A stretch of 64,000 nucleotides of DNA, taken from the IMG/VR virus record IMGVR_UViG_3300047323_000675; one strand, given 5' to 3'. The translations under genes were made by a program, and so were the position numbers. Shown one piece after another: positions 4,950 through 60,234 of the stretch (position 1 is its first letter; every line of letters starts with the position of its first letter). The stretch is from a virus. Below the pieces are notes generated by a model. That model had not been told where the DNA came from and ran no database searches. It saw nothing but the letters and a program-made list of their open reading frames with translations.

Positions 4950-5906
4950 ATGAAGCAATTAAAAAAACAAAAACATCAATTAGTAATTTTAGGTAGTGGT
5001 CCTGCTGGTTGGACTGCTGCAATCTATGCTGCTCGTGCAGGATTAAAGCCTGTTGTTATTTCAGGATTTTCAAAAGGTGGTCAGTTAATGACTACTACCG
5101 ATGTTGAAAATTGGCCAGGAGAAAAAGCTGTAGAGGGACCAGAACTAATTTCTAATTTAGAAGCACATGCGGTTCACTTTGGAACCCAACTCATTGAAGA
5201 TCATATTGATAGAGTAGATTTTTCAAAAAAACCATTTAAGTTATTTAGTCATGAAGCTGAATATGAATGTGATGCAGTTATTATATGTACAGGTGCTAAT
5301 GCAAAATATCTTGGTTTAGATAGTGAACAAGAGTTTTTAGGTCGTGGTGTATCAGGATGTGCTACTTGTGATGGTTTCTTCTATCGTAATGATGAAGTAG
5401 CTGTTGTAGGTGGAGGTAATACTGCGGTTGAGGAAGCAATTTATTTATCTAACATTGCGTCTAAAGTACATTTAGTTCATAGGAGAGATACATTTAAAGC
5501 GGAAAAAATTATGATTGATCGCCTACAAAGAAGAATTGATCAAGGCCTTGTTGAACTACACTTAGATAGTGAAGTAAATGAAGTTAAAGGTGATGAGACA
5601 GGTGTTACATCGTTAGAGATTAAAAATACAAAAAGTGGCGACACTAAGGATATTCCATTAAGAGGTGTATTTATTGCTATTGGTCATTCACCTAACACTT
5701 TAATTTTTAAAGGTCATTTAGAATTAGATAAAAATGGTTATATTCTAACTAAAAAAGCATCTAACCATGTTACTCAAACAAGTATTCGTGGAGTATTTGC
5801 TGCTGGTGATGTTCAAGACAATATCTATCGTCAAGCAATTACGAGTGCTGGTGCAGGTTGCCAGGCAGCATTAGATGCAATTGAATACTTAGAAGGATTA
5901 AATTGA
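4950..5906 (+). CDS. trxB: Thioredoxin-disulfide reductase
   Basis: GSGPAG FAD motif, CATCDG redox centre, [15 protein letters not shown] motif, C-terminal [17 protein letters not shown]. Confidence 0.97.
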
Positions 5907-9389: not shown

Positions 9390-9986
9390 ATGAAGTATGA
9401 AATTATAAGAAATGGTGATAATTTATTTAAAAAATATGAAGCTGATATTTATAAGCTTAGATATAAAGTCTTTAAAGAAATATTAAATTGGAAAGTTGAT
9501 ACAGTAGATGGTGATAAAGAAATAGATTATTTTGATTCTTTAGATGATTTACACTATGTAATTACTTTAGATGATGATGGAACTTTAGTAGGATGTATGA
9601 GATTACTTCCAACAATAAATGATTATATGTTAGAAAAAGTTTTTCCTAATTTATTAGATAATCAAAATATACCTAAAGAAGAAAAAATATGGGAAATAAG
9701 CAGATTTGCAATAGACCCTGATTATCAAAGACAAACAAACATGTTAGCCTTTAATAAAGCAACTCTTTTATTAATGAAAGGAATGTGTGAGTTTTCTAAA
9801 AATCAAAATATTGATTCATATGTAGCAGTAACAACTGATAGAATGGATAGAATGCTCAAAAAACTTAAAATGGATTCACAAATGTTAGGTAAAAAATTAG
9901 CAATGGAAGATTGTAATGTCGTTACACTTCAATTAAATATGAATAATAACAGTTTTAATGCAGTTGAAGAAGCACTTACAAACTAA
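9390..9986 (+). CDS. luxI: Acyl-homoserine-lactone synthase (LuxI family)
   Basis: LRYKVFKEILNW, EIDYFD, GCMRLLPT, WEISRFAI motifs. Confidence 0.95.
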   Translation: MKYEIIRNGDNLFKKYEADIYKLRYKVFKEILNWKVDTVDGDKEIDYFDSLDDLHYVITLDDDGTLVGCMRLLPTINDYMLEKVFPNLLDNQNIPKEEKIWEISRFAIDPDYQRQTNMLAFNKATLLLMKGMCEFSKNQNIDSYVAVTTDRMDRMLKKLKMDSQMLGKKLAMEDCNVVTLQLNMNNNSFNAVEEALTN

Positions 9987-10671
9987 TCATGTTTTTAGTA
10001 ATAGCTAAAGAAATAATTTGATTTTTAGATACACAATTAAATTTTTTCTTTAGCTTTTCGCTATAATCAACACAAGTTCGATAAGAAATATTCATTATAA
10101 TAGAAATTTCTTCCATTGTTTTACCAATTGCTAACCACTTGAGAAATTCGGTTTCTCTTGGTGTTAGTCTTGGATTTTGGAAAAAGTCATGTTTACTTAC
10201 TTCTAATTCAAAAATTTTATGATGAATAAATGGAACTATTGCATTAATATATAACATTGCCTCAAAAGGTATCTTTTTCTTTCCTGCAATAGCAAATAAC
10301 CCTTTTTCGCCACGAGGACCATGAATAGGAAATGTTATGCCATTAGGAATTCCTGCATCGCTAGATTCTTCTCTTAATTTTGCACAATTTTGAAATAATT
10401 CATCAGACCATTCAATTGGTTGAACATTTTGAAAAGCATATGCAATGGTTGCATCATTAAGATAATACTTATTTTTTTTGTAATGATTGATCCAAGATTC
10501 AGAACAACCAGAAAATATATATGGTTCCTCATTAGTTATGATGCTAGGTGCCTTAATCCCATAATTGAATTCATTAACACCATAAAAATTAATGTTTTTC
10601 AAAATTAATTCCTTAACTTCATTCATTGAAGAAGCTGTTGCAAGATCCTGCATAAAATTGATATTTACCAT
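9976..10671 (-). CDS. luxR: AHL-binding LuxR-family transcription regulator
   Basis: Autoinducer-binding domain (W..HY....YY..D.......P..W, GITFPIHG) plus C-terminal HTH (LTPRETEFLKWLAIGKT.EEI); convergent with luxI, 11-bp overlap. Confidence 0.95.
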   Translation of the reverse strand: MVNINFMQDLATASSMNEVKELILKNINFYGVNEFNYGIKAPSIITNEEPYIFSGCSESWINHYKKNKYYLNDATIAYAFQNVQPIEWSDELFQNCAKLREESSDAGIPNGITFPIHGPRGEKGLFAIAGKKKIPFEAMLYINAIVPFIHHKIFELEVSKHDFFQNPRLTPRETEFLKWLAIGKTMEEISIIMNISYRTCVDYSEKLKKKFNCVSKNQIISLAITKNMISL

Positions 10672-49921: not shown

Positions 49922-50037
49922 ATATTATGATTAGCAAATTTTATGAAATTATAACAAATTTACTTTAAATAAGAAACTAAAAAATTTGACAATATTTTTC
50001 TTAATATATATGATTTAATAAAACTACAGGACTTAAA

Positions 50038-50331
50038 ATGAATAAGCAAGAACAATTAGCATGGGCTAAAAAAGAATTGAAAGCAATAATGGATGATTCT
50101 AATAAAACCCGTTATAAAGCACTTGTATCTACACCTAATGATTTATTGTCCCTTGAAGAAGCTTTTCTTTTTATAGCCAATTCAAAAGCACAAGCATATA
50201 AATCATCTATGCTAGGCAACTATCAACAATCTTTTAATTGGGTTAATGAAAATTCCGATATGGCCAAAAGTATTCTTCTACTACAGCAAAATATAATTGC
50301 TATTAATGATGTTGCCATGCTTCCTGATTAA
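50038..50331 (+). CDS. Hypothetical protein
   Basis: TTGACA promoter, AGGA RBS, terminator ~50341-50367. Confidence 0.75.
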   Translation: MNKQEQLAWAKKELKAIMDDSNKTRYKALVSTPNDLLSLEEAFLFIANSKAQAYKSSMLGNYQQSFNWVNENSDMAKSILLLQQNIIAINDVAMLPD

Positions 50332-50368
50332 TATATAAAAGAAAAGCCCCTAGATGGGGCTTTTTTCA

Positions 50369-50503
50369 TCAAATCTTACGCTGAACATCTTTTGCTAATT
50401 CTTGCACTTTTTCACCACCCTTTTGAACATCCTGACCAATACCACTAATAGTATTGCAACCAGTTAATCCTACTAACAATAATATCGCAAATATTTTTTT
50501 CAT
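50369..50503 (-). CDS. Entericidin EcnA/B-family lipoprotein
   Basis: Manual translation MKKIFAILLLVGLTGCNTISGIGQDVQKGGEKVQELAKDVQRKI; lipobox LTGC then NT..G.G.D; AAGGAG RBS. Confidence 0.85.
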   Translation of the reverse strand: MKKIFAILLLVGLTGCNTISGIGQDVQKGGEKVQELAKDVQRKI

Positions 50504-50615
50504 CAAAGACTCCTTAGTTATAATGAAAATATAAAATATTTTTATAGAAATGCAATTATTGTAATCATATTCTTTTTTGGTAAAATATTATAAATAATAT
50601 ATTTAGAGGAAAAAA

Positions 50616-51305
50616 ATGGCAAAGAAAATAAAGCATCCATATATTTTAGATACAACTTATCAAGTCTATGAAAATGGTCAGTTTGATGAATTAGAAAATG
50701 TTATAGTTAAAATTTATGAATACACAGATAAAGCTGAGGAAGAACAATTAGATCTTGACGAAAGAAAAGATTACTTGGAAATTAGAATGAAAAGAATTAT
50801 CCCAAGCAGAGAAATAAACGATGTATTAGACATTGCAGATAGTGACAGTGCTGAACTTTTACATGCAATAGCTCCAATTTTAAAAGAAGGTCATGAAGAA
50901 TTCATTGCTAGTGCTTTAAAAATTGATGACTATATATTATTAGATAAATATATTTATATTGATACTATTGAAAAACATGGTGATTTCTTAGAACAATCTA
51001 TTCCTGCTGCAATCTCTAGAGCGTTAACTGTAATAACAAAAGGTTTAGAACCTGAAGATTGGGTTGCAGTTATGTATGAGGCTCACACAATATCTGAACA
51101 AAATAATGAAGTTGATATGAAGAGGAATAAAGTTGGTTCTATACTTAAAAACTTAGGATTCCTTGCTTTACCTGAGGTAGTATCTAATGTAGAAAAAGAG
51201 CATAATGTTCTTAATATTGTAGGTGGAAATACCTTAAATAAAAATTTAGAGTATTCTCCTGAATTGCTAGAAGAAAAGAAAAAAGATAAAAAAATTAAGC
51301 CTTAA
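50616..51305 (+). CDS. Hypothetical acidic protein
   Basis: GAGG RBS; terminator ~51307-51330. Confidence 0.75.
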   Translation: MAKKIKHPYILDTTYQVYENGQFDELENVIVKIYEYTDKAEEEQLDLDERKDYLEIRMKRIIPSREINDVLDIADSDSAELLHAIAPILKEGHEEFIASALKIDDYILLDKYIYIDTIEKHGDFLEQSIPAAISRALTVITKGLEPEDWVAVMYEAHTISEQNNEVDMKRNKVGSILKNLGFLALPEVVSNVEKEHNVLNIVGGNTLNKNLEYSPELLEEKKKDKKIKP

Positions 51306-51329
51306 ATAAAGCCCCTTAATGGGGCTTTA

Positions 51330-52121
51330 TTATATTTTTATTTTTTTAAGTTGAATATCATTTTTAATCAAATCATTATCCAACTCCTTATTTAACCAAT
51401 ATTTATCAATAGCTTTTTTTCTATCTTCGTTATCATCATAATTAGCCCAATAAGGAATTGGAGCAATAGACTCTTCAAATATTGTTAATGCAGCTTCAAA
51501 CATTAATAAATATGGTTTCCAATTAGACAAGTCTCCATTAAATTCTGATCTAGAAAATAATCCTGGAGCATTTTGTAAGCTAAAAACATTCCAATTACTT
51601 AAATTGCCATTAAATTTAGAATCAGAAAACATAGAATTCATATTTTTAACTTTTGACACATCCCATTGACTTATATCACCATTGAATTTTGAAGCCCAAA
51701 ACATGGCTATCATATCTTTTACACTAGATGTATTCCATTTAGAAATATCACCATTAAATTCAGAATGAGAAAACATATGTCCCATATGATGCACTTGTGA
51801 TACATCCCATTTAGATATCTCTCTATTAAATTCAGAGTTGTTAAACATTCCTATCATACTCTGAACATTAATCACATTCCATTGGCTTATATCACCATTG
51901 AATTTAGAACTATCAAACATGCAATTCATGTTAATAACATTAGAGACATCCCATTGGCTTATGTCACCATTAAATTTTGAATCATAAAATAACCTTTCCA
52001 TATCCTCTATCTTTGAAACATCAATATGATTCAACTCACATTGATTTCCATTAAGTGCAATCTCATTATTAATTAATTGTTCTAAATGTTCTTTATTTAT
52101 TGCGATAACTTTAGGTTTCAT
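51330..52121 (-). CDS. BspA/DUF285-type LRR protein (dispersed copy)
   Basis: Same repeats and caps. Confidence 0.9.
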
Positions 52122-52705
52122 ATCTTCATTCTTTTACTATTATTTCCTTCATTACTTAAACTATCATAAAGTTCTTGTGCTTGAACAAATTTTTCATAAC
52201 GGTTTAATATTCCAGGAACAAATTGCTTAGATCTATCTTGCATAAGATAATAGTCTTTTTTAATCCTTTCAATATAAGGACGAATATCCATTTTATAATC
52301 AAAAACTAAATACTCAAGCATATGTTTTGGAGCTAGGTTGAAACAATACATACAATCTAAACGAGCATAATCTTTTGTTTTAGCATCAGTTAACAAGAAT
52401 TTAGCAGATTCTACTGCACCTTCCTGAACAGCACATCTTAATGCTTCATTACATTTTTGCGGTAAGTTAATCTCCTTTGGAAATTCGTCAATAAAATATT
52501 TAATAATATCTAAGTGACCATCACCAGCAGCCAATATAAAAGCCTGTTCTTTTTTATATTCTTGAATCCTACTAAAATATTCAAACTCAGTGTTCATCAA
52601 ATATTTTACAGCTTCTAAATCATTTCTTCTAGCAGCAAAAATAAGCTCATTTCCATTATCAATGCTTGGCATATGAAATAATTTCTTTTGTTCTTCAGTA
52701 ATCAT
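52118..52705 (-). CDS. Ankyrin-repeat protein
   Basis: [42 protein letters not shown]. Confidence 0.85.
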
Positions 52706-52778
52706 AGTAAATATAAGTTTTTAATTAATTCTAGCAGAAAATAGATGTAAAAAAAGCCCTTGGAAGGGCTTGTGGTTT

Positions 52779-53759
52779 TTAGAATTGTGATTGTTCTTGG
52801 ATATAGCTTTTAACTATTTCTTTATAAGGTTCTCTTGTTAATAAAGTTCCTCTAGAAAATGGCTTGTTTTGTATCTCTGACACTTCCTTAGCTAATATAA
52901 TAGCTAATTCATTTGAACTTTTAAACTTTATATAATTATTCCTATAAGATTCAATTATTTTTTTAACGATATCTAATCTTTCATGCATTTTCTCAGATTT
53001 ATATTCGTGAACAGAAGAATATTTTTTAGGAGATGGAGGAATATCATTATTCTCATGAATCCAATCATATCTTTTTCTTTGTTTTATAAACCAAATTGTG
53101 CTTTTATGAACATTAAATTCTTTTGAGAGTTCAGTTAATGTTTTATTTTCGGCATAAAAAATATATAAAGCTTGTTCTTTTGTTAGTTTTCTCTGAATAG
53201 TATTATTTTCTAAATGACCAAATTGGCCACTATTAGGCTTTCTTAAAATATTAATATTTTCTTTTAATCGCTTTTTACCAGCACATGATTTACTGCAAAA
53301 AGCCTCTTTACAAGTTCTTTTTAGTTTATTGTCTCTAGAAAATTCTTTAGTGCAGAAGCCACATACATAAGTATATTTAGGCTTGTAGTCATCATAAAGG
53401 CTCTGAAAATTTTTAGTGTTATATTTCTGTGAAACATAATCAAATGCATACTTTAAATCTTCTTTCCTCATTACTCTAACTTTATAGCCTAATGATTCAG
53501 CTAGAGCAGTTTTTTTGTTAACACTATCTTCTTTTTCATAGCCCTTAGGCTCAATAATTGTTATTCCATCAGCTAATAAAAAATCTGGACAATAAACTAA
53601 TTTATCTTTTTTAAGTTGACCAGGAAAACGAGTAAATTTAATACCATGATCTAAAGCATGGATTGCCCAACATAATTCATAGGTTGAACCACAATATAAA
53701 CCTTTGTAATGTCCTTGCTTACTTCTTCCTGACTTTACTCTATAACCTCCACCTGGCAT
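52779..53759 (-). CDS. Putative PD-(D/E)XK endonuclease with zinc-finger and HTH modules (homing-endonuclease-like)
   Basis: STYE..., YCPDFLL...IIEPKG nuclease core; CGFC...CSKSC zinc motif; TLTELSKEFNVHKSTI HTH. Confidence 0.7.
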   Translation of the reverse strand: MPGGGYRVKSGRSKQGHYKGLYCGSTYELCWAIHALDHGIKFTRFPGQLKKDKLVYCPDFLLADGITIIEPKGYEKEDSVNKKTALAESLGYKVRVMRKEDLKYAFDYVSQKYNTKNFQSLYDDYKPKYTYVCGFCTKEFSRDNKLKRTCKEAFCSKSCAGKKRLKENINILRKPNSGQFGHLENNTIQRKLTKEQALYIFYAENKTLTELSKEFNVHKSTIWFIKQRKRYDWIHENNDIPPSPKKYSSVHEYKSEKMHERLDIVKKIIESYRNNYIKFKSSNELAIILAKEVSEIQNKPFSRGTLLTREPYKEIVKSYIQEQSQF

Positions 53760-53902
53760 ATTATTAGACTTTTAAAATGTCTAATAATATTATAAAAATA
53801 GTTGATTAAAGTCAATATTTTAAGATTAAAATAAGTGGTAAAAATTTACAGTATTTTAAAATTATATATTATGAAAAAATAGGTTTTTAAAAGGAGATTT
53901 AA

Positions 53903-54067
53903 ATGAAATTTGAAATATATAAAGATAAAAATGGAGAATGGCGTTGGAGAATTAAAGCAGCTAATGGAAAAATAATAGCTGATTCATCAGAGGGATATAA
54001 AAATAAACAAGATGCAATAAATATGATAAATGCTATTGTTGCAATTAAAGAATATAATGAAATATAA
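53903..54067 (+). CDS. YegP/DUF1508-family small protein
   Basis: Manual translation MKFEIYKDKNGEWRWRIKAANGKIIADSSEGY... (54 aa); AAGGAG RBS. Confidence 0.85.
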   Translation: MKFEIYKDKNGEWRWRIKAANGKIIADSSEGYKNKQDAINMINAIVAIKEYNEI

Positions 54068-54079
54068 TTTTTAAGCTCG

Positions 54080-54110
54080 AAAAAGAAAAGCCTACATTTC
54101 TGTAGGCTTT
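54080..54110. terminator. Bidirectional intrinsic terminator closing the tRNA operon and the YegP-like gene
   Basis: AAAGCCTACA-tttc-TGTAGGCTTT with a U-tract on the minus strand. Confidence 0.8.
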
Positions 54111-54118
54111 GTCATCGT

Positions 54119-54346
54119 TTAAACCATTTGTTCTGCTTTAGCAGTATTAATATTGTCAACATGTTTTTTTATCCATCTCATGAAAAGAATTGCTTTGTCA
54201 TCTGCTCCGAAAGAAGCATCCCCTGTGTCTGATATTGGAACTGGAAACTCAAATCCGCACTCAGTTTTGTACCATAATTCACTTTGTTGATAGCGAATAA
54301 ATTGAACTCTTTTCCCGTTGTTGACCATCTCTTTTATGCTGCTCAT
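54119..54346 (-). CDS. Small hypothetical protein, last cistron of the tRNA operon
   Basis: AAGGAG RBS; LWYKTECGFEFPVPISD...KAILFMRWIKKH; same strand, directly downstream of the array. Confidence 0.8.
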   Translation of the reverse strand: MSSIKEMVNNGKRVQFIRYQQSELWYKTECGFEFPVPISDTGDASFGADDKAILFMRWIKKHVDNINTAKAEQMV

Positions 54347-54420
54347 TATATTTCTCCTTTTATTTATAATAATGATTAATTGGTGGTAAATTAATTATAA
54401 GAAGCCACCACTTCTTATTC

Positions 54421-54495
54421 TGGCATCGCGTACGAGAATCGAACTCGTATCATTTGGTTGAAGGCCAAATATTCTCACCATTAAACTAACGCGAT
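54421..54495 (-). tRNA. tRNA-Glu(TTC), atypical C33
   Basis: Cloverleaf ATCGCGT/ACGCGAT, anticodon arm TTTGG-CCTTCAA-CCAAA, T-loop TTCGATT, encoded CCA. Confidence 0.85.
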
Positions 54496-54507
54496 ATTAA
54501 ATCTATT

Positions 54508-54601
54508 AAGAGTTTGCGGAGTCGAACCGCTTCTCTGCCTGCAAGCAGCGCATGAAGCCGACTAGTGATTGCAGTCACCAATACGCACATGCTGAACTCT
54601 T
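54508..54601 (-). ncRNA. Aberrant tRNA-like element (GCA/Cys-like loop, very long variable region, no CCA)
   Basis: Acceptor AAGAGTT/AACTCTT, T-arm GCGG-TTCGACT-CCGC, GGTGA-CTGCAA-TCACT arm, ~30-nt variable insert, weak D-arm. Confidence 0.55.
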
Positions 54602-54606
54602 TAACT

Positions 54607-54682
54607 TGGTGTCTCTAGAGGGATTTGAACCCTACATCTCCGGTGGGATTACGCGGCGATTTAACCATTAATCTATAGAGAC
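54607..54682 (-). tRNA. Glu-family tRNA body with scrambled anticodon arm (anticodon undetermined)
   Basis: Acceptor GTCTCTA/TAGAGAC + ACCA; D- and T-arms resemble the neighbouring Glu tRNAs; anticodon region CCG-CGTAATCCCAC-CGG is non-canonical. Confidence 0.7.
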
Positions 54683-54688
54683 AAAACT

Positions 54689-54772
54689 TGGTGGATGAGG
54701 TTGGATTTGAACCAACGAACCCGAAGGAAATGATTTACAGTCATCGCGCTTTAGCCACTTGCATACTCATCC
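54689..54772 (-). tRNA. tRNA-Tyr(GTA)
   Basis: G1-C72, A73, loop CTGTAAA, long variable arm, CCA; identical to 55943..56026. Confidence 0.95.
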
Positions 54773-54798
54773 ATTAAAACTATTTACTGATTAAATCT

Positions 54799-54876
54799 TG
54801 GTATCCAGTATGGGGGTTGAACCCATTTTCTCGGATTGAGAATCCGATTTCCTAACCTACCGTAGAAGAACTGGAT
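54799..54876 (-). tRNA. tRNA-Glu(CTC)
   Basis: Arm TCGGA-TTCTCAA-TCCGA; acceptor ATCCAGT/ACTGGAT; CCA. Confidence 0.9.
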
Positions 54877-54900
54877 ATAGAACTATTTACTGCATAATTT

Positions 54901-54985
54901 TGGTGGATCAGGTAGGATTCGAACCTACTCATCCGAAGAAACGGGGTTACAGCCCATCACACCTCTCCAACTGTGTCGCTGATCC
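54901..54985 (-). tRNA. tRNA-Tyr(GTA)
   Basis: Arm ATGGG-CTGTAAC-CCCGT; long variable arm; CCA. Confidence 0.92.
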
Positions 54986-55020
54986 AAATTTAAAAATTCT
55001 TTCAAAAAAATACTTAAATT

Positions 55021-55102
55021 TGGTGGATGAGGTAGGGATCGAACCTACTTGCCGAAGCCACGGAGTTACAGTCCGCTGCCCTACCATTAGAGCATCTCAT
55101 CC
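55021..55102 (-). tRNA. tRNA-Tyr(GTA)
   Basis: Arm GCGGA-CTGTAAC-TCCGT; variable arm GGCTTCGGC; CCA. Confidence 0.93.
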
Positions 55103-55107
55103 AAAAA

Positions 55108-55216
55108 TTAAGTGTATTTGCGTAGACGGAAAATCCGTTCTTCGGGATGGGTTAAGGCTCGTAGCCCCGATTCTGCAAATCCCCATTTACTAGCCAGGAG
55201 ATAAACTCACACTTAA
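55108..55216. ncRNA. Structured non-tRNA element inside the tRNA array
   Basis: Closed by TTAAGTGT/ACACTTAA; internal ATTTGC/GCAAAT, ACGGA/TCCGT and GGCT/AGCC helices; GC-rich in an AT-rich context. Confidence 0.55.
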
Positions 55217-55235
55217 AAACTTTACTACTACAATT

Positions 55236-55310
55236 TGGTATCGTGTATGGGATTCGAACCCATGTCCAAGGAGTGAAAGTCCAAGTATCCTTCCAGTAGA
55301 TGAACACGAT
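55236..55310 (-). tRNA. tRNA-Glu(TTC), weak anticodon stem
   Basis: GGA-CTTTCAC-TCC with two T.T mismatches below; acceptor ATCGTGT/ACACGAT; CCA. Confidence 0.85.
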
Positions 55311-55336
55311 ATAAAACTATTTTTATTACTTAAAAT

Positions 55337-55414
55337 TGGTGTCCCCAACGGGATTTGAACCCGTGTTTTCGGATTGAAAGTCCGACGATCTCGACCAAAC
55401 TAATCTATGAGGAC
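55337..55414 (-). tRNA. tRNA-Glu(TTC)
   Basis: TCGGA-CTTTCAA-TCCGA; CCA. Confidence 0.92.
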
Positions 55415-55440
55415 GATGAAACTTTTTACTACTTTTAAAC

Positions 55441-55525
55441 TGGTGGAGATGGATGGATTTGAACCACCGCGCCTTTTGGAAACTGATTTACAGTCAGTCG
55501 CATTCGACCCCTCTGCCACATCTCC
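55441..55525 (-). tRNA. tRNA-Tyr(GTA)
   Basis: ACTGA-CTGTAAA-TCAGT; long variable arm; CCA. Confidence 0.93.
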
Positions 55526-55548
55526 ATTAAAACTTTTACTACTTAATT

Positions 55549-55625
55549 TGGCACACCCAACGAGGATTGAACTCGTATTTTCGGATTGAAAGTCCGATGT
55601 TCTCGACCAATTAAACTATGGGTGT
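55549..55625 (-). tRNA. tRNA-Glu(TTC)
   Basis: TCGGA-CTTTCAA-TCCGA; acceptor ACACCCA/TGGGTGT; GCCA. Confidence 0.92.
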
Positions 55626-55647
55626 AAAACTTTTTACTACATTATAT

Positions 55648-55723
55648 TGGAGCACCTAACGGGGATCGAACCCGTATTTTCAGATTGAAAGTCTGACTAT
55701 CTAACCAATTAATATATAGGTGC
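55648..55723 (-). tRNA. tRNA-Glu(TTC)
   Basis: TCAGA-CTTTCAA-TCTGA; acceptor GCACCTA/TAGGTGC; TCCA. Confidence 0.92.
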
Positions 55724-55729
55724 TTTGTT

Positions 55730-55805
55730 TGGTATGGGTAACGGGATTTGAACCCGTGTCTGCGGATTGAAAGTCCGCTGATCTATCCAACTAATCTATA
55801 CCCAT
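55730..55805 (-). tRNA. tRNA-Glu(TTC)
   Basis: GCGGA-CTTTCAA-TCCGC; acceptor ATGGGTA/TACCCAT; ACCA. Confidence 0.92.
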
Positions 55806-55853
55806 GTAAATATTTACAAATTTAAAAACTCTTTATTTAAAAGTGTTTAAATT

Positions 55854-55937
55854 TGGCGTTCCGTGGGGGATTCGAACCCCAGTCTTTCGACATCACCTTG
55901 AAAGGGTGAGGACGGTTGCCGGCCGTCAACACGGAAC
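55854..55937 (-). tRNA. tRNA-Glu(TTC) with an unusual long variable arm
   Basis: TCACC-CTTTCAA-GGTGA; variable hairpin GTC-GAAA-GAC; 5-bp D-stem GACGG/CCGTC; GCCA. Confidence 0.85.
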
Positions 55938-55942
55938 ATATT

Positions 55943-56026
55943 TGGTGGATGAGGTTGGATTTGAACCAACGAACCCGAAGGAAATGATTTACAGTCATCG
56001 CGCTTTAGCCACTTGCATACTCATCC
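55943..56026 (-). tRNA. tRNA-Tyr(GTA)
   Basis: Exact duplicate of 54689..54772. Confidence 0.95.
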
Positions 56027-56053
56027 ATATTCACAACATTTACTACTTTAATT

Positions 56054-56139
56054 TGGTGGGGCAGGTAGGAATCGAACCTACAAGCCGTAAGGCGACCGCT
56101 TTACAGGCGGCTGATTTCACCACACTTACCATCTACCCC
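56054..56139 (-). tRNA. tRNA-Tyr(GTA), first tRNA of the operon
   Basis: GCCGC-CTGTAAA-GCGGT; long variable arm; ACCA. Confidence 0.93.
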
Positions 56140-56163
56140 AAATTTGCTACTTTTACTACGCTC

Positions 56164-56179
56164 AATTTTTAAAGAACAA
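56164..56179 (-). promoter_or_regulatory. boxA antitermination signal (rrn-type)
   Basis: TTGTTCTTTAAAAATT on the minus strand, 25 nt before the first tRNA; matches the TGCTCTTTAACA-type consensus. Confidence 0.8.
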
Positions 56180-56188
56180 TACTACTCA

Positions 56189-56207
56189 TGTTGTCGTTTT
56201 GACAACA
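56189..56207 (-). promoter_or_regulatory. boxB-like hairpin preceding boxA
   Basis: TGTTGTC-AAAAC-GACAACA perfect 7-bp stem. Confidence 0.6.
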
Positions 56208-56210
56208 CTA

Positions 56211-56246
56211 CAAAAACAAAAAAGGCACCAATTTCTCGGTGCCTTT
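56211..56246 (-). terminator. Attenuator terminator (segments 3:4) between the leader ORF and the tRNA array
   Basis: AAAGGCACC-GAGAAATT-GGTGCCTTT followed by TTTGTTTTTG. Confidence 0.9.
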
Positions 56247-56380
56247 GATTTACTTCTTACTTACTTGTCAGAGTGAACTCAGTTAATATAAACTTGGGTT
56301 TCCTTGTTTACATTAACCTTTGCATCAACACTATCTGAACGAGCAAAAGTAAATGCGACACCGTTGGTGTTCATTTCCTC
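56237..56380 (-). promoter_or_regulatory. Attenuator RNA switch: 1:2 protector and 2:3 antiterminator
   Basis: 1:2 = GAG-G-AAATG-A-ACACC / GGTGT-CG-CATTT-A-CTT. 2:3 = CGGTGTC/GGCACCG, ATTTACTT/AAGTAAAT and TTGCT/AGTAA; it uses the terminator 5' arm. Confidence 0.8.
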
Positions 56381-56413
56381 TCGTTCATAATAATAAGTGT
56401 TCATGCGGTTCAT
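56279..56413 (-). CDS. Tyr/Glu-sensing leader peptide (44 aa)
   Basis: MNRMNTYYYEREEMNTNGVAFTFARSDSVDAKVNVNKETQVYIN*; codons TAT TAT TAT GAA CGA GAG GAA; GAGAGA RBS; lies between promoter and terminator. Confidence 0.85.
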   Translation of the reverse strand: MNRMNTYYYEREEMNTNGVAFTFARSDSVDAKVNVNKETQVYIN

Positions 56414-56460
56414 GTTATTTCTCTCAAATAAATAAGTTTGTCTAAATCTTCAATGTAATC

Positions 56461-56489
56461 ATTATGCCTCAGTTGCAATTCCGTGTCAA
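56461..56489 (-). promoter_or_regulatory. sigma70 promoter P2 of the leader/tRNA operon
   Basis: TTGACA-N17-CATAAT with an AT-rich upstream tract. Confidence 0.85.
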
Positions 56490-56568
56490 TAGGTTTCTTC
56501 AAAATATTTTTATTGTTTCAAAAAAACAACACATGACACTTGTTGCTCAACTGCATTCAATGAAGTGA

Positions 56569-56598
56569 ATTATATATTAAATTTCAATTAGGTGTCAA
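56569..56598 (-). promoter_or_regulatory. Candidate upstream sigma70 promoter P1
   Basis: TTGACA-N18-TATAAT about 110 bp upstream of P2. Confidence 0.6.
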
Positions 56599-56605
56599 AC
56601 AATAT

Positions 56606-56854
56606 TTATAATTTACTATGTTTGGAATATACATGATGAGAAAAGCCAGCAAACATAAAAAATGAGATAACAGCCAAGCAAACACATATAAGAATTACTA
56701 CTGCTTGAAAAAAAGAATAATTCCATGTTTTCATCATTATTACTAAAACCATTAAAATTGATATAGCACAATATCCCATAACCATAAGCATAATTCCAAT
56801 TGGACATAAAGCGAATAATTTTAATTCATACCAAAAATTTTTTAGTTTATTCAT
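56606..56854 (-). CDS. Small membrane protein
   Basis: Two hydrophobic segments. Confidence 0.6.
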   Translation of the reverse strand: MNKLKNFWYELKLFALCPIGIMLMVMGYCAISILMVLVIMMKTWNYSFFQAVVILICVCLAVISFFMFAGFSHHVYSKHSKL

Positions 56855-56994
56855 AATATACCTATTCTATTGAGTTTAGATATTAGAGGTAAGTTCAAAA
56901 TAGTCAATAGTATGCTTAGTCTTAAAAATATGCCATATTGTATTGATAAGAAGATAAGAGTATAATTATTAGAATAATATATGAAGGAATCATT

Positions 56995-57879
56995 ATGAAA
57001 ATCAAAGAAATATTAACCTCAGCAGAAGATAAGTCTGTGAACTTTATCTATGACAATTGGATAGAGGCTAGATTTGTAAGAAGAGAAGCTGATTACTTCA
57101 TTATTTATCTTTCATCGCATGATGGTTGTAATAAGGCATGTCGTTTCTGCCATTTAACTCAAACAAAACAAACTTCTTTCAATCGGGTAACAATAGAAGA
57201 ATATCTAATGCAAGCTGAAGATGTCTTGAATTACTACGACTCAATTAAAAATAACCAAGGTGCTGCAAAAAGGGTTAACTTTAATTTTATGGCTAGAGGA
57301 GAAGCCCTAGCTAACCAAGTTATTTTGGAGAATGCTAAAGAATTATTTTCTAGTTTGGAAAATTTAGCATTAAAAAGAGGTTTAAGTGCAAGATTTAATA
57401 TTTCAACAATTATGCCAATGGAAATAGAATCAAAAGATTTGGCTGATATTTTCAAGGATGTTACTCAAGATTATGGGATTTATTATTCACTATATAGTGT
57501 CGATGATAAATTTAGGAAGCGCTGGCTACCGAAAGCTTTAAATTATGAAGTAGCACTAAAAAAATTAGAAGAATTACAGCTAAAAAGAGGAGCAGATATT
57601 GCCTTCCATTGGGCATTTATTGAAGGTGAAAATGATAGTAAAGAAGATTTAGATGAATTAAAGAATGTCTTGTCTAATTACAACATTAAGGCCAAGTATA
57701 ATTTAGTAAGATATAATCCCTATAGTTCCAATCAAGGGAAAGAACCAACAGAGGATGTTTTGCAGTATAATTTTAATGAATTAAATGAATTTTTTAAAAG
57801 TCCTGCATCTAGAATTGTTCCTCGTGTTGGATTTGATGTTAAAGCCTCATGTGGGATGTTTGTAATCAATAATAATTGA
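56995..57879 (+). CDS. RlmN/Cfr-like radical SAM enzyme (divergent, lacks the resolving Cys)
   Basis: LSSHDGCNKACRFC, FMARGEAL (cf. MGMGEPL), IEGEND, NLVRYNP, C-terminal ASCG; Tyr at the RlmN C118-equivalent position. Confidence 0.8.
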   Translation: MKIKEILTSAEDKSVNFIYDNWIEARFVRREADYFIIYLSSHDGCNKACRFCHLTQTKQTSFNRVTIEEYLMQAEDVLNYYDSIKNNQGAAKRVNFNFMARGEALANQVILENAKELFSSLENLALKRGLSARFNISTIMPMEIESKDLADIFKDVTQDYGIYYSLYSVDDKFRKRWLPKALNYEVALKKLEELQLKRGADIAFHWAFIEGENDSKEDLDELKNVLSNYNIKAKYNLVRYNPYSSNQGKEPTEDVLQYNFNELNEFFKSPASRIVPRVGFDVKASCGMFVINNN

Positions 57880-57882
57880 TTT

Positions 57883-58338
57883 TTATTTTCTTGGCTTAGG
57901 TCTACTTATTTGCTTATCAATGAAATTTTCACGCAAAGATAATATTGGTTTTATTCCATCATTCTCAGATAAGTTTTTTAATCTCTTTAATTCCGATTTT
58001 ATATATTCTTTTTCATTTGGATTCATGGCATCATAACTATCTTGCATAATTTTTTCATTATCGGGTATAATATTACGATTTTTGCCGTTACGAATTAAAA
58101 TTGTTGCTAATATAACAGGCCCTATTACTGTTGCAGCATATCCCATCATCCATATAGATAAATTTGATTGACTTAAATTAGGCGATTGAGAAGTAAGTGC
58201 AATACCTAATGAAGTCGCACCTAATGCTATAAAATTAATATTTTTAACAATTTTTCTAAATGATTTTTCGCTGACAACTTCTAATTCTGCTTCTTGAAAT
58301 GATTTTGTAGTAGAACTATTGATTAATTTTTTTGCCAT
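57883..58338 (-). CDS. Membrane protein (2 TM)
   Basis: Two hydrophobic helices; basic tail. Confidence 0.7.
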   Translation of the reverse strand: MAKKLINSSTTKSFQEAELEVVSEKSFRKIVKNINFIALGATSLGIALTSQSPNLSQSNLSIWMMGYAATVIGPVILATILIRNGKNRNIIPDNEKIMQDSYDAMNPNEKEYIKSELKRLKNLSENDGIKPILSLRENFIDKQISRPKPRK

Positions 58339-58385
58339 AATTTATCCTTTTATTTTATATTAAAAAAACTTTAATCAAATTATCA

Positions 58386-58790
58386 TTAAAGTTTTTTTTT
58401 AATCTTACTTTTTTTGCTTGCTAAAGTCTCTTTGAAGCTATCTTTTAATTCCCCATAATTATCAAAAACTTCTTTAATAGACTTATAATCGTTTATAACT
58501 TTAGCAAGGTCTTCAGAACATTTTAAATTCATATGTGCAATATGTTTAATAGGATGATTGCTTTCATCTTTAAAGCTTTTTTGGAGTTTCTTTAGTTCTT
58601 TAAAACTAATTTCCTTATCTGTCTTATCAAAGCCTTCTTCTCTAGAATAAATAATTTTAATATCTAATGCTGTTTCATCAAAATAAAGTGAATAAATATG
58701 TGTACTTCTATTGAATAACACAAATCCATATTTACTAAATAATTGATAATTTTTGGTTCTTGGTTGCATGATATTAATCTTTAAATTCAT
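58386..58790 (-). CDS. Hypothetical protein with basic tail
   Basis: 134-aa ORF; paralogue of the interrupted gene upstream. Confidence 0.75.
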   Translation of the reverse strand: MNLKINIMQPRTKNYQLFSKYGFVLFNRSTHIYSLYFDETALDIKIIYSREEGFDKTDKEISFKELKKLQKSFKDESNHPIKHIAHMNLKCSEDLAKVINDYKSIKEVFDNYGELKDSFKETLASKKSKIKKKL

Positions 58791-58796
58791 TAATAA

Positions 58797-59180
58797 TTAA
58801 ATTTTATTTTTAACTTTGTTTTTCTTGCTTGCCACAATATCTTTAAAACTATCTTTTAAATCCCCGTAATTATCAAATATTGTTTTTATATCACTATAAT
58901 GTGTAATAGCTTTTTCTAATGTATCAGAAAACATTTTCTCCATATTAGAATGATTGCCATTCTGGCTACTGATAGAATTTTGAAATCTTCTATTAAATTC
59001 ATTTAACTCTTCAATGCTCATTTCCTTTGTTTGTTTTTTTTATACTGAGAAACCCTCTTCTTTTGTATGAATTATCTTAATATCTAAATCGGGTTCATTG
59101 TAATAAATTGAAAAGATATATTTAATTCCAAAAAAAGAAGCTTCATTTTGACTATATAATTGGTAATTTTCTAAGTTCAT
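58797..59180 (-). pseudogene. Paralogue of 58386..58790 interrupted by an in-frame TAA (59040-59042)
   Basis: ATG at 59180 gives MNLENYQLYS...LDIKIIHTKEEGFSV*KKQTKEMSIEEL...; same frame on both sides of the stop; aligns with NYQLFS...LDIKIIYSREEGF...FDNYGELKDSFK. Confidence 0.8.
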
Positions 59181-59698
59181 AATTTAGGCTTATCTTGTTT
59201 TACAGTATTTTCACTATTTAACTCATTATTTAACTCATTATTTACACTTCTTATTTTAAATAATTTTTCTACATATTCTGCCATATCATGATGAGGTGTA
59301 TTTTTAGATTCATTAAGAAAATTGTCTATATCTTTAGTGCGATTGATTTTGCAATCAAATATAAGGAACTCTAATATATCATTATAATTTCCTGCATTAT
59401 AATTTCTTAAAAAAGTTACTATAAAAGCTGAATCATTACCAACATGTATATCTGCATGTTCTGTTAGTTCATCTGATGTTAATAAATACTTAGCCAATGC
59501 TAAATCTTTGTCAATTAATGCATTTCTTAATGGAAGCCCTTTTTCACCATGAGCTTGTGTATTAATATCAGCATGTTTTGATAATTCTGGACTAGTTAAT
59601 AAATATTTAACCAATGCCATATCTTTTGATTTGCATGCTTTAATTAAGCATTCATCTAAATCATATTGATCTAAATTTTGATATTTTTCTTTGTTCAT
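59177..59698 (-). CDS. Ankyrin-repeat protein (array gene 8)
   Basis: KYLLTSPEL..HADI motif; tail DKPKL; closest to 62110..62637. Confidence 0.85.
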   Translation of the reverse strand: MNKEKYQNLDQYDLDECLIKACKSKDMALVKYLLTSPELSKHADINTQAHGEKGLPLRNALIDKDLALAKYLLTSDELTEHADIHVGNDSAFIVTFLRNYNAGNYNDILEFLIFDCKINRTKDIDNFLNESKNTPHHDMAEYVEKLFKIRSVNNELNNELNSENTVKQDKPKL

Positions 59699-59718
59699 AT
59701 ATTTAATCCTTATATTTT

Positions 59719-60234
59719 TTATAATTTATGTTTTCGTTGTTGTTCTTTTATATCTAAAGAATCACTTAATTCTTTATTTAAGTCTCGCAAATCAAACCAA
59801 TGTTTTATTTTTTTTATTAATACATCATAGTCACTACCATGCTTATGATGATTTTTATAATTTTCAATCCAATCAATTTTGTTTATTTTTAAATCAAATA
59901 TAAAATATTTTATTATATTTTCAGAAAAATTATTATATGCATAACCAAAAAAATTATTGCGTCCACTAAATGCATCAAATGGTTTTTCTATATCAGCTTG
60001 TATATTAATTTCTTTATTTAAGTTTAATAGTAATTTAAGGGCATCTACCTGATCAAATATGCAAGTGAAATCAATTAAATTATTTGTAATACTAGGATGA
60101 TAAATTAACTGTGGTGAAGTTAATAAGTATTTTATAGTATCAATTTCACCATGTTTACATGCATCAATAATTACATCATCTAATTTTTGATTAGACATAT
60201 CTTTAAATTTCAGATGTAATTTTACATTTTCCAT
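59719..60234 (-). CDS. Ankyrin-repeat protein (array gene 7)
   Basis: ACKHGEIDTIKYLLTSP; tail RKHKL. Confidence 0.85.
   Translation of the reverse strand: MENVKLHLKFKDMSNQKLDDVIIDACKHGEIDTIKYLLTSPQLIYHPSITNNLIDFTCIFDQVDALKLLLNLNKEINIQADIEKPFDAFSGRNNFFGYAYNNFSENIIKYFIFDLKINKIDWIENYKNHHKHGSDYDVLIKKIKHWFDLRDLNKELSDSLDIKEQQRKHKL

Follow-up and report, generated by a model that had tools for sequence, protein, structure and literature searches.

Within the window, by which we mean the whole 64-kb stretch of DNA analysed here, the minus strand carries two tandem promoter-like sequences, a short open reading frame (ORF), an intrinsic terminator, a boxA-like element and an array of tRNA genes followed by a gene for a 75-aa protein (Table 1). 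The surrounding DNA has a GC content of 27% and holds LuxI/LuxR and TrxB genes together with arrays of ankyrin, DUF285 and DUF4116 genes, and because of this composition and gene content it looks like a bacterial chromosome. A LuxI-type autoinducer synthase gene with a convergent LuxR-type regulator (9390-10671) and a thioredoxin-reductase-like gene (4950-5906) are surrounded by ankyrin, DUF285, DUF4116 and class-3 lipase arrays of 24-34% GC, a gene content that suggests a proteobacterium living with a eukaryotic host. The radical SAM protein encoded next to the locus shares 44-49% identity with jumbo phage proteins (CcrColossus, CcrPW, and Phabio), and no relatives of its gene were found in viral contigs. 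In the related loci described below this gene does not lie adjacent to the leader, and as the two are unlinked there, the idea that the ORF supplies this enzyme with a RiPP precursor was rejected.

Table 1. Predicted features of the locus and its immediate neighbours (positions in the window).
Feature	Position	Strand	Description
Radical SAM protein gene	56995-57879	+	Adjoins the module; PHROG 27142 (E 4e-105)
Promoter P1	56569..56598	-	TTGACA-18-TATAAT, 12/12 consensus matches
Short hairpin CAACA/TGTTG with seven-T run	56520..56545	-	Just 3' of P1; read from the sequence
Promoter P2	56461..56489	-	TTGACA-17-CATAAT, 11/12 matches, near-consensus sigma70
Shine-Dalgarno-like GAGAGA	56420..56425	-	Purine-rich, 6 nt 5' of the ATG at 56413
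Leader ORF	56279..56413	-	44 codons (44 aa) plus stop, from translation
Control codons 7-13 (YYYEREE)	56375..56395	-	Within the 5' arm of hairpin A (segment 1)
Hairpin A (1:2 anti-antiterminator)	56322..56406	-	Codons 3-31; stem GAACGAG:CUCGUUC
Apical hairpin of hairpin A, ACACC/GGUGU	56370..56358	-	From folding
Segment 2	56324..56363	-	Codons 17-30; CGGUGUC, AUUUACUUU, UCAGA; pairs either in hairpin A (as 3' arm) or in the antiterminator (as 5' strand)
Hairpin B	56281..56318	-	13 bp, codons 32-44, ends at the stop codon
Segment 3	56237..56278	-	Spacer (UCUGA, GUAAAU) plus terminator 5' arm GGCACCG; partner of segment 2
Intrinsic terminator (putative attenuator)	56211..56246	-	11-bp stem with 4-nt loop (56246..56221), then TTTTTTGTTTTT
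BoxB-like hairpin	56190..56206	-	GTTGTC-AAAAC-GACAAC; lost in L005
BoxA-like element	56165..56178	-	TGTTCTTTAAAAAT; GCTCTTTAAAAAT in L001
tRNA array (putative controlled cargo)	54421..56139	-	14 ARAGORN tRNA genes (14-15 tRNA genes in total) plus tRNA-like extras
75-aa gene	54119-54346	-	Strong AAGGAG ribosome-binding site; closes the tRNA operon
Terminator after the 75-aa gene	54110..54087	-	3' of the gene

Six related peptides with 79-98% identity were found in a search of 5.8 billion proteins, and the longest contig carrying the window's own peptide measures 2.23 Mb. The relatives compared here are the metagenomic loci L001-L007 and the contig L008, which hold six distinct leaders beyond that of the window, seven with it. 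Among metagenome contigs, an invariant 29-mer of the leader was found in L008 only, which is a duplicate of L003; the same 29-mer had no match in viral contigs, a search of genome contigs with the peptide alignment gave no relative, and a blastn comparison of the locus with 50,697 phage records yielded matches of tRNA length only. A tRNA array restricted to Tyr, or to Tyr and Glu, follows the leader in six of the seven loci L001-L007, with 1-15 ARAGORN genes, short contigs ending early (L004 carries five array tRNA genes, and the L006 contig ends before any ARAGORN tRNA call). Upstream neighbours vary by locus, being ankyrin genes, the radical SAM gene, or infC, and given this difference P2, the leader, the array and the 75-aa gene behave as a module. 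The locus with infC is L006, where the module lies directly after this gene for IF3 (930-1454); the corresponding E. coli operon with infC also holds the pheM-pheST attenuator, and the resemblance may be coincidental.

The 44-aa ORF had been proposed in a first-pass annotation of this DNA, and translation bears it out. Its codons 7-13 read TAT TAT TAT GAA CGA GAG GAA (YYYEREE), that is, three Tyr codons (7-9) and three Glu codons (10, 12, and 13) split by a CGA Arg codon, exactly as that annotation had claimed. Among the 76,383 stop-free seven-residue stretches in the six frames of the 64 kb, YYYEREE is the sole one with at least three Tyr and at least three Glu, and we estimate a chance expectation of about 0.001 such stretches per 300-nt leader, given frequencies in long ORFs of 4.2% for Tyr and 7.4% for Glu. 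The ATG at 56413 is invariant across the relatives and the second ATG (56404) is replaced by GTA in L005, which makes 56413 the conserved start. A GAGAGA ribosome-binding site and a transcription start about 40 nt before the ORF had likewise been suggested, and both agree with the sequence: P2 puts the predicted start of transcription near 56454, ~41 nt 5' of the ATG, and GAGAGA, weak in comparison with the AAGGAG of the 75-aa gene, becomes AGGA in L005, so that a purine-rich site is retained. A 62-aa form of the peptide annotated in L001 and L002 was rejected, since its extension begins inside the -10 box of P2, upstream of the predicted transcription start. The remark that the ORF is long for a classical leader holds insofar as 44 codons exceed most of them, but the extra length finds its explanation in the RNA, because the 3' arm of hairpin A and the whole of hairpin B lie within the ORF; the E. 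coli pyrL leader also has 44 codons. Pfam and PHROG scans of the 44-aa peptide gave no match.

Of the two tandem promoters, which stand ~109 bp apart, P2 has its TTGACA and CATAAT invariant in all seven distinct sequences, and P1 is present in the window, L001-L004, and L007 and absent from L005 and L006. P1 resembles a partial duplicate of P2, CATTGAA following both, and within ~45 nt it leads into a small hairpin with seven T, possibly a weak terminator for P1 transcripts. P1 may therefore yield only a short RNA, or it may add a second control point.

Downstream of the ORF, the terminator is conserved among the relatives, and the boxA-like element beyond it, upstream of the tRNA genes, matches 10-11 of the 12 positions of the E. 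coli rrn boxA consensus, GCTCTTTAACAA. The sole promoter-like site between the terminator and the first tRNA lies at 56205..56176 (TTGTCA-18-TATTGT, 9/12 matches), and its -10 hexamer falls inside boxA; in L001 this hexamer reads TATCGC, the final T being gone, and the promoter-like site is broken while the boxA match improves to GCTCTTTAAAAAT. BoxA acts in RNA and hence must be transcribed from upstream. Since the only promoter-like site downstream of the putative attenuator overlaps boxA and is destroyed in L001, transcripts of the array would probably pass the attenuator, and this arrangement favours, short of proof, their origin by read-through from P2.

The array itself consists of six tRNA-Tyr(GTA), seven tRNA-Glu(TTC), and one tRNA-Glu(CTC), with no other anticodon called, and the amino acids it serves, exactly Tyr and Glu, match the control codons of the ORF. 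ARAGORN calls an 84-nt tRNA-Glu(TTC) with a long variable arm at 55854-55937 (minus strand), for which the Rfam tRNA model gives no match even at E up to 1; this member of the array is atypical or non-canonical. Conversely, the stretch 54610-54682 (minus strand) scores 46 bits with the Rfam tRNA model and receives no ARAGORN call; by eye, its acceptor and T arms look normal and its anticodon arm looks aberrant, with a loop of ~11 nt. Another tRNA-like stretch between two array genes, 54508-54601 (minus strand), has an acceptor-like closing helix and a GGTTCGACTCC T-arm, and neither tool calls it. The 75-aa protein matches PHROG 20427 (E 6e-32), and jumbo phages of 350 kb carry homologues with ~54% identity to it, the one in Serratia phage BF being encoded directly after a tRNA-Arg gene; a PDB sequence search with the protein found no relative. 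These matches place it in a family linked to tRNA regions. Since the best matches of both the 75-aa and the radical SAM proteins are in jumbo phages, and the phage BF homologue adjoins a tRNA gene, the module looks phage-derived.

Comparison of the relatives shows that codons 1-31 of the leader hardly vary in nucleotide sequence. When the window is set against L001, L003, or L004, 1-2 of the 31 third codon positions differ; for the same genome pairs, the neighbouring 75-aa gene differs at 19-25 of 69-75 such positions and a 326-aa gene at 142 of 322. With third positions in neighbouring genes diverging by 26-44%, silent sites of the leader are 5-10 times more conserved. Across codons 5-29, substitutions that alter the peptide are about as rare as silent ones, the C-terminal third of the peptide varies freely with the frame staying open, and indels within the ORF are of -6 and -12 nt, or of +8 nt followed by an immediate stop. 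These patterns indicate that the leader is both coding and constrained as RNA, and such conservation is what a leader would be expected to show, unlike that of a working small protein. YYYEREE is invariant in the relatives, near-invariance reaches beyond the run over all of codons 1-31, and these codons contain no frameshift.

Consensus folding of the seven sequences predicts hairpin A, hairpin B, and the terminator, hairpin B being retained in six of the seven, and the leader as a whole adopts a rod-like, very stable fold (-79 kcal/mol). Codons 3-13, the run included, make the 5' arm of hairpin A and codons 20-31 its 3' arm, and the Tyr and Glu codons are buried in the stem, with no specifier-type loop. 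RNAalifold reports three compensatory pairs. At the base of hairpin A, an A-U pair has become G-C in L005, altering two amino acids (M4V and D30H); in L006, a C-G pair of hairpin B is changed to U-A and a G-C pair of the terminator to A-U. As the seven distinct sequences are fairly close and share a near-invariant core, this covariation rests on few substitutions, mostly those of L005 and L006. A further long-range pairing is predicted between 56421-56448 and 56249-56276 (minus strand), joining the 5' UTR, ribosome-binding site included, to the pre-terminator spacer; in leader RNA that has been terminated, this pairing would make the ribosome-binding site inaccessible. Two suggestions of the first-pass annotation lose their ground here. 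The CGA codon had been thought to add a basal pause, which is unsupported; the invariant CGA belongs to the 7-bp stem GAACGAG:CUCGUUC, and its conservation needs no such explanation. A separate role for the peptide is unlikely, given that changing and silent substitutions in codons 5-29 are about equally rare, that two of the changing ones are compensated in stems, and that the C-terminal third is free to vary.

When the 5' part is masked up to a ribosome at codon 10, all seven sequences fold into the same three-helix antiterminator. In helix 1, CGGUGUC (codons 17-19) pairs with GGCACCG of the terminator 5' arm; in helix 2, AUUUACUUU(UGC) pairs with the spacer (...GUAAAU); and in helix 3, UCAGA pairs with UCUGA just 3' of the stop codon. 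The substitution S26L of L006 (UCA to UUA) is compensated in the spacer, where UCUGA has become UCUAA. These helices were compared sequence by sequence, and column-based covariation counts were dropped, MAFFT misaligning the variable spacer.

A stall scan was then modelled with the A site at every codon and the ribosome covering -15 to +12 nt. In the ensemble, pairing of the terminator arm with segment 2 has a probability of 0.00 without a ribosome or with one at the stop codon. With the A site at the Tyr codons 7-9 this probability is 0.39-0.42 in the window and 0.72-1.0 in the relatives, and at the Glu codons 10, 12, and 13 it is 0.65-0.86 and 0.89-1.0, respectively. Codon 15 gives 0.00 in every sequence but L006 (0.21), and codon 20 gives 0.00-0.02 in all seven. 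Minimum-free-energy folds capture the terminator arm with the A site at the run in six of the seven sequences: at codons 7-13 only in L004 and L007, at codons 7-11 only in L003, at codons 7-10 and 12-13 and again at 28 and 30 in L001, and over a wider permissive range, recurring near codons 25-31, in L005 and L006. In the window's own sequence under stall, the competing 5'UTR:spacer pairing wins the minimum-free-energy fold, and the antiterminator prevails only in the ensemble (0.39-0.86) or with the 5' UTR masked. When segment 2 was replaced by dinucleotide-preserving shuffles, 6-9% of these still paired the whole terminator arm, with energy z-scores of -2.6 to -4.9. As a control, the script was also run on the thr leader of E. 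coli, for which it gave an antiterminator probability that is high up to codon 15 and low thereafter, which is its known behaviour. The stall site lies ~150 nt before the terminator, farther than in classical leaders. In this model, the permissive stall positions coincide with the Tyr/Glu run. Conservation, nucleotide constraint, compensatory changes, and constrained folding thus give support in silico to the earlier proposal that the run senses a shortage of either tRNA, like the multivalent thr and ilv leaders.

Taken together, we consider it probable that the ORF encodes the leader peptide of a ribosome-mediated transcription attenuator that responds to Tyr as well as to Glu codons and controls the very tRNAs that read them. 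Transcription would begin at P2. With no ribosome on the leader, or with a ribosome that has run to the stop codon, segment 1 (codons 3-13) and segment 2 (codons 17-31) would pair as hairpin A, upon which the terminator would form and transcription would end before the tRNA genes. Where too little usable Tyr-tRNA or Glu-tRNA holds up a ribosome anywhere within codons 7-13, this ribosome would instead cover segment 1, and segment 2, thereby freed, would pair with the spacer and the terminator 5' arm and block the terminator. RNA polymerase would then read on through boxA, which would presumably recruit Nus factors that keep it processive on the untranslated array, and more tRNA-Tyr and tRNA-Glu would be made. 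The sensor would be multivalent in the sense that either codon type suffices. Translation of the leader, its coupling to transcription, actual read-through, and the physiological trigger are what we infer from the sequence and the folding.

The best-surviving alternative is a structured non-coding leader RNA in which the open frame is incidental, for instance an element for processing or for protein binding, a small RNA with its 3' end at the terminator, or a riboswitch that binds tRNA directly. The near-invariance of codons 5-29 in nucleotides, the stable rod-like fold and the weak ribosome-binding site would suit such an RNA, but the ATG and a purine-rich ribosome-binding site are kept throughout, even where GAGAGA gives way to AGGA in L005, and the indels either preserve the frame or are immediately stopped. 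A 44-codon open frame has, by our estimate, a chance of ~2% per frame at this base composition, and the permissive stall positions coincide exactly with the Tyr and Glu codons. A T-box or other Rfam element was rejected, as an Rfam scan of 50000-60000 gave no match in the leader to any family, T-box included, at E up to 1, and the codons lie in a stem with no specifier-type loop. We regard a purely non-coding leader as unlikely.

That the ORF is a small gene of the usual kind, with a promoter and a terminator of its own, and that its YYYEREE stands by coincidence beside an independently transcribed Tyr/Glu array, is in our judgement quite improbable. This reading could draw on the promoter-like TTGTCA-18-TATTGT between the terminator and the first tRNA, yet that site overlaps boxA and is broken in L001. 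The length of 44 aa, beyond that of most classical leaders, and the conservation of the peptide stretch EMNTNGVAFTFA outside the control codons would also fit a gene in its own right; against this, silent sites are 5-10 times more conserved than in the neighbours, substitutions that change the peptide are compensated in RNA stems, the C-terminal third is unconserved as protein with no Pfam or PHROG match, and the run has an estimated chance of only ~0.001. A translated leader that responds to translation stress in general, or works as an arrest peptide, instead of reporting specifically on Tyr and Glu tRNA supply, is very improbable, for although drug-sensing and arrest-peptide attenuators exist (e.g., TnaC) and a nascent-chain effect would suit the invariant residues around the run, the invariance is at the level of nucleotides and not of the peptide, and the match between codon run and tRNA cargo, kept in all relatives, would be left unexplained.

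Returning to the attenuator, its trigger is more likely to be a shortage of tRNA, or damage to it, than amino-acid starvation, since extra tRNA helps in the former case and is futile when the amino acid itself is short. Published work describes nucleases of tRNA-Tyr (retron-Eco7 and colicin E5) and of tRNA-Glu (RloC), and no tRNA-targeting nucleases of those kinds were found in the 64-kb window. A more far-reaching version, which we offer tentatively and would not call likely, is that the module is a mobile phage-derived cassette and a self-referential sensor of tRNA damage, in which decoding of a Tyr/Glu test ORF governs the supply of diversified, nuclease-evading replacement tRNAs once the cell's own have been lost to, for instance, anticodon nucleases that stem from competitors, from defence systems, or from a host.

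If the attenuator operates as proposed, the cell would test the decoding of two codon types on a mini-gene and answer with exactly the matching tRNAs, closing a direct feedback loop on tRNA supply and providing a natural explanation for single-purpose tRNA arrays. It could also provide an inducible defence against toxins that cleave tRNA; rescue of infection from such nucleases by phage tRNAs has been described (PMC11555353). With its compact size of ~280 bp, the element could serve as a codon-specific biosensor of tRNA availability.

Expression of tRNA genes is thought to be controlled mainly at their promoters, through growth rate and stringent control, and leader-peptide attenuation is the textbook mechanism of amino-acid operons. 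A full-text search, with most subscription journals outside its coverage, found no published description of leader-peptide attenuation of tRNA genes; the classical mechanism is known, and its use on tRNA genes with a two-amino-acid sensor and an rrn-type boxA seems new.

Several known systems share parts of this design. In the rrn antitermination leaders, tandem promoters, a boxB-like hairpin, and a boxA-like element occur as they do here, where binding of Nus factors is predicted, but the rrn leaders are not known to have a translated ORF or attenuator between promoters and boxA. T-box riboswitches likewise let the status of a specific tRNA decide read-through of a terminator; they bind uncharged tRNA directly without translation, whereas here the codons lie in a stem within an ORF. 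The E. coli pheM leader, the attenuator of the synthetase operon pheST, resembles the present one in that leader-peptide attenuation acts on a part of the translation machinery dedicated to the amino acid that is sensed, but it controls a synthetase and not tRNA genes, and it senses a single amino acid. Multivalent leaders are represented in enterobacteria by thrL, with Thr and Ile codons, and by ilvL/ivbL, with Ile, Leu, and Val codons. With these, the leader described here shares a promoter, a short ORF in which codons for more than one amino acid are clustered, an intrinsic terminator, alternative hairpins of the 1:2, 2:3, and 3:4 type, and read-through that either codon type can trigger (here in silico), all without sequence homology. 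It differs from them in its greater length (44 codons, ~243 nt), in the extra hairpin B within the ORF, in the boxA that follows the terminator, and in what it would control, namely the tRNAs that read its control codons in place of biosynthetic enzymes.
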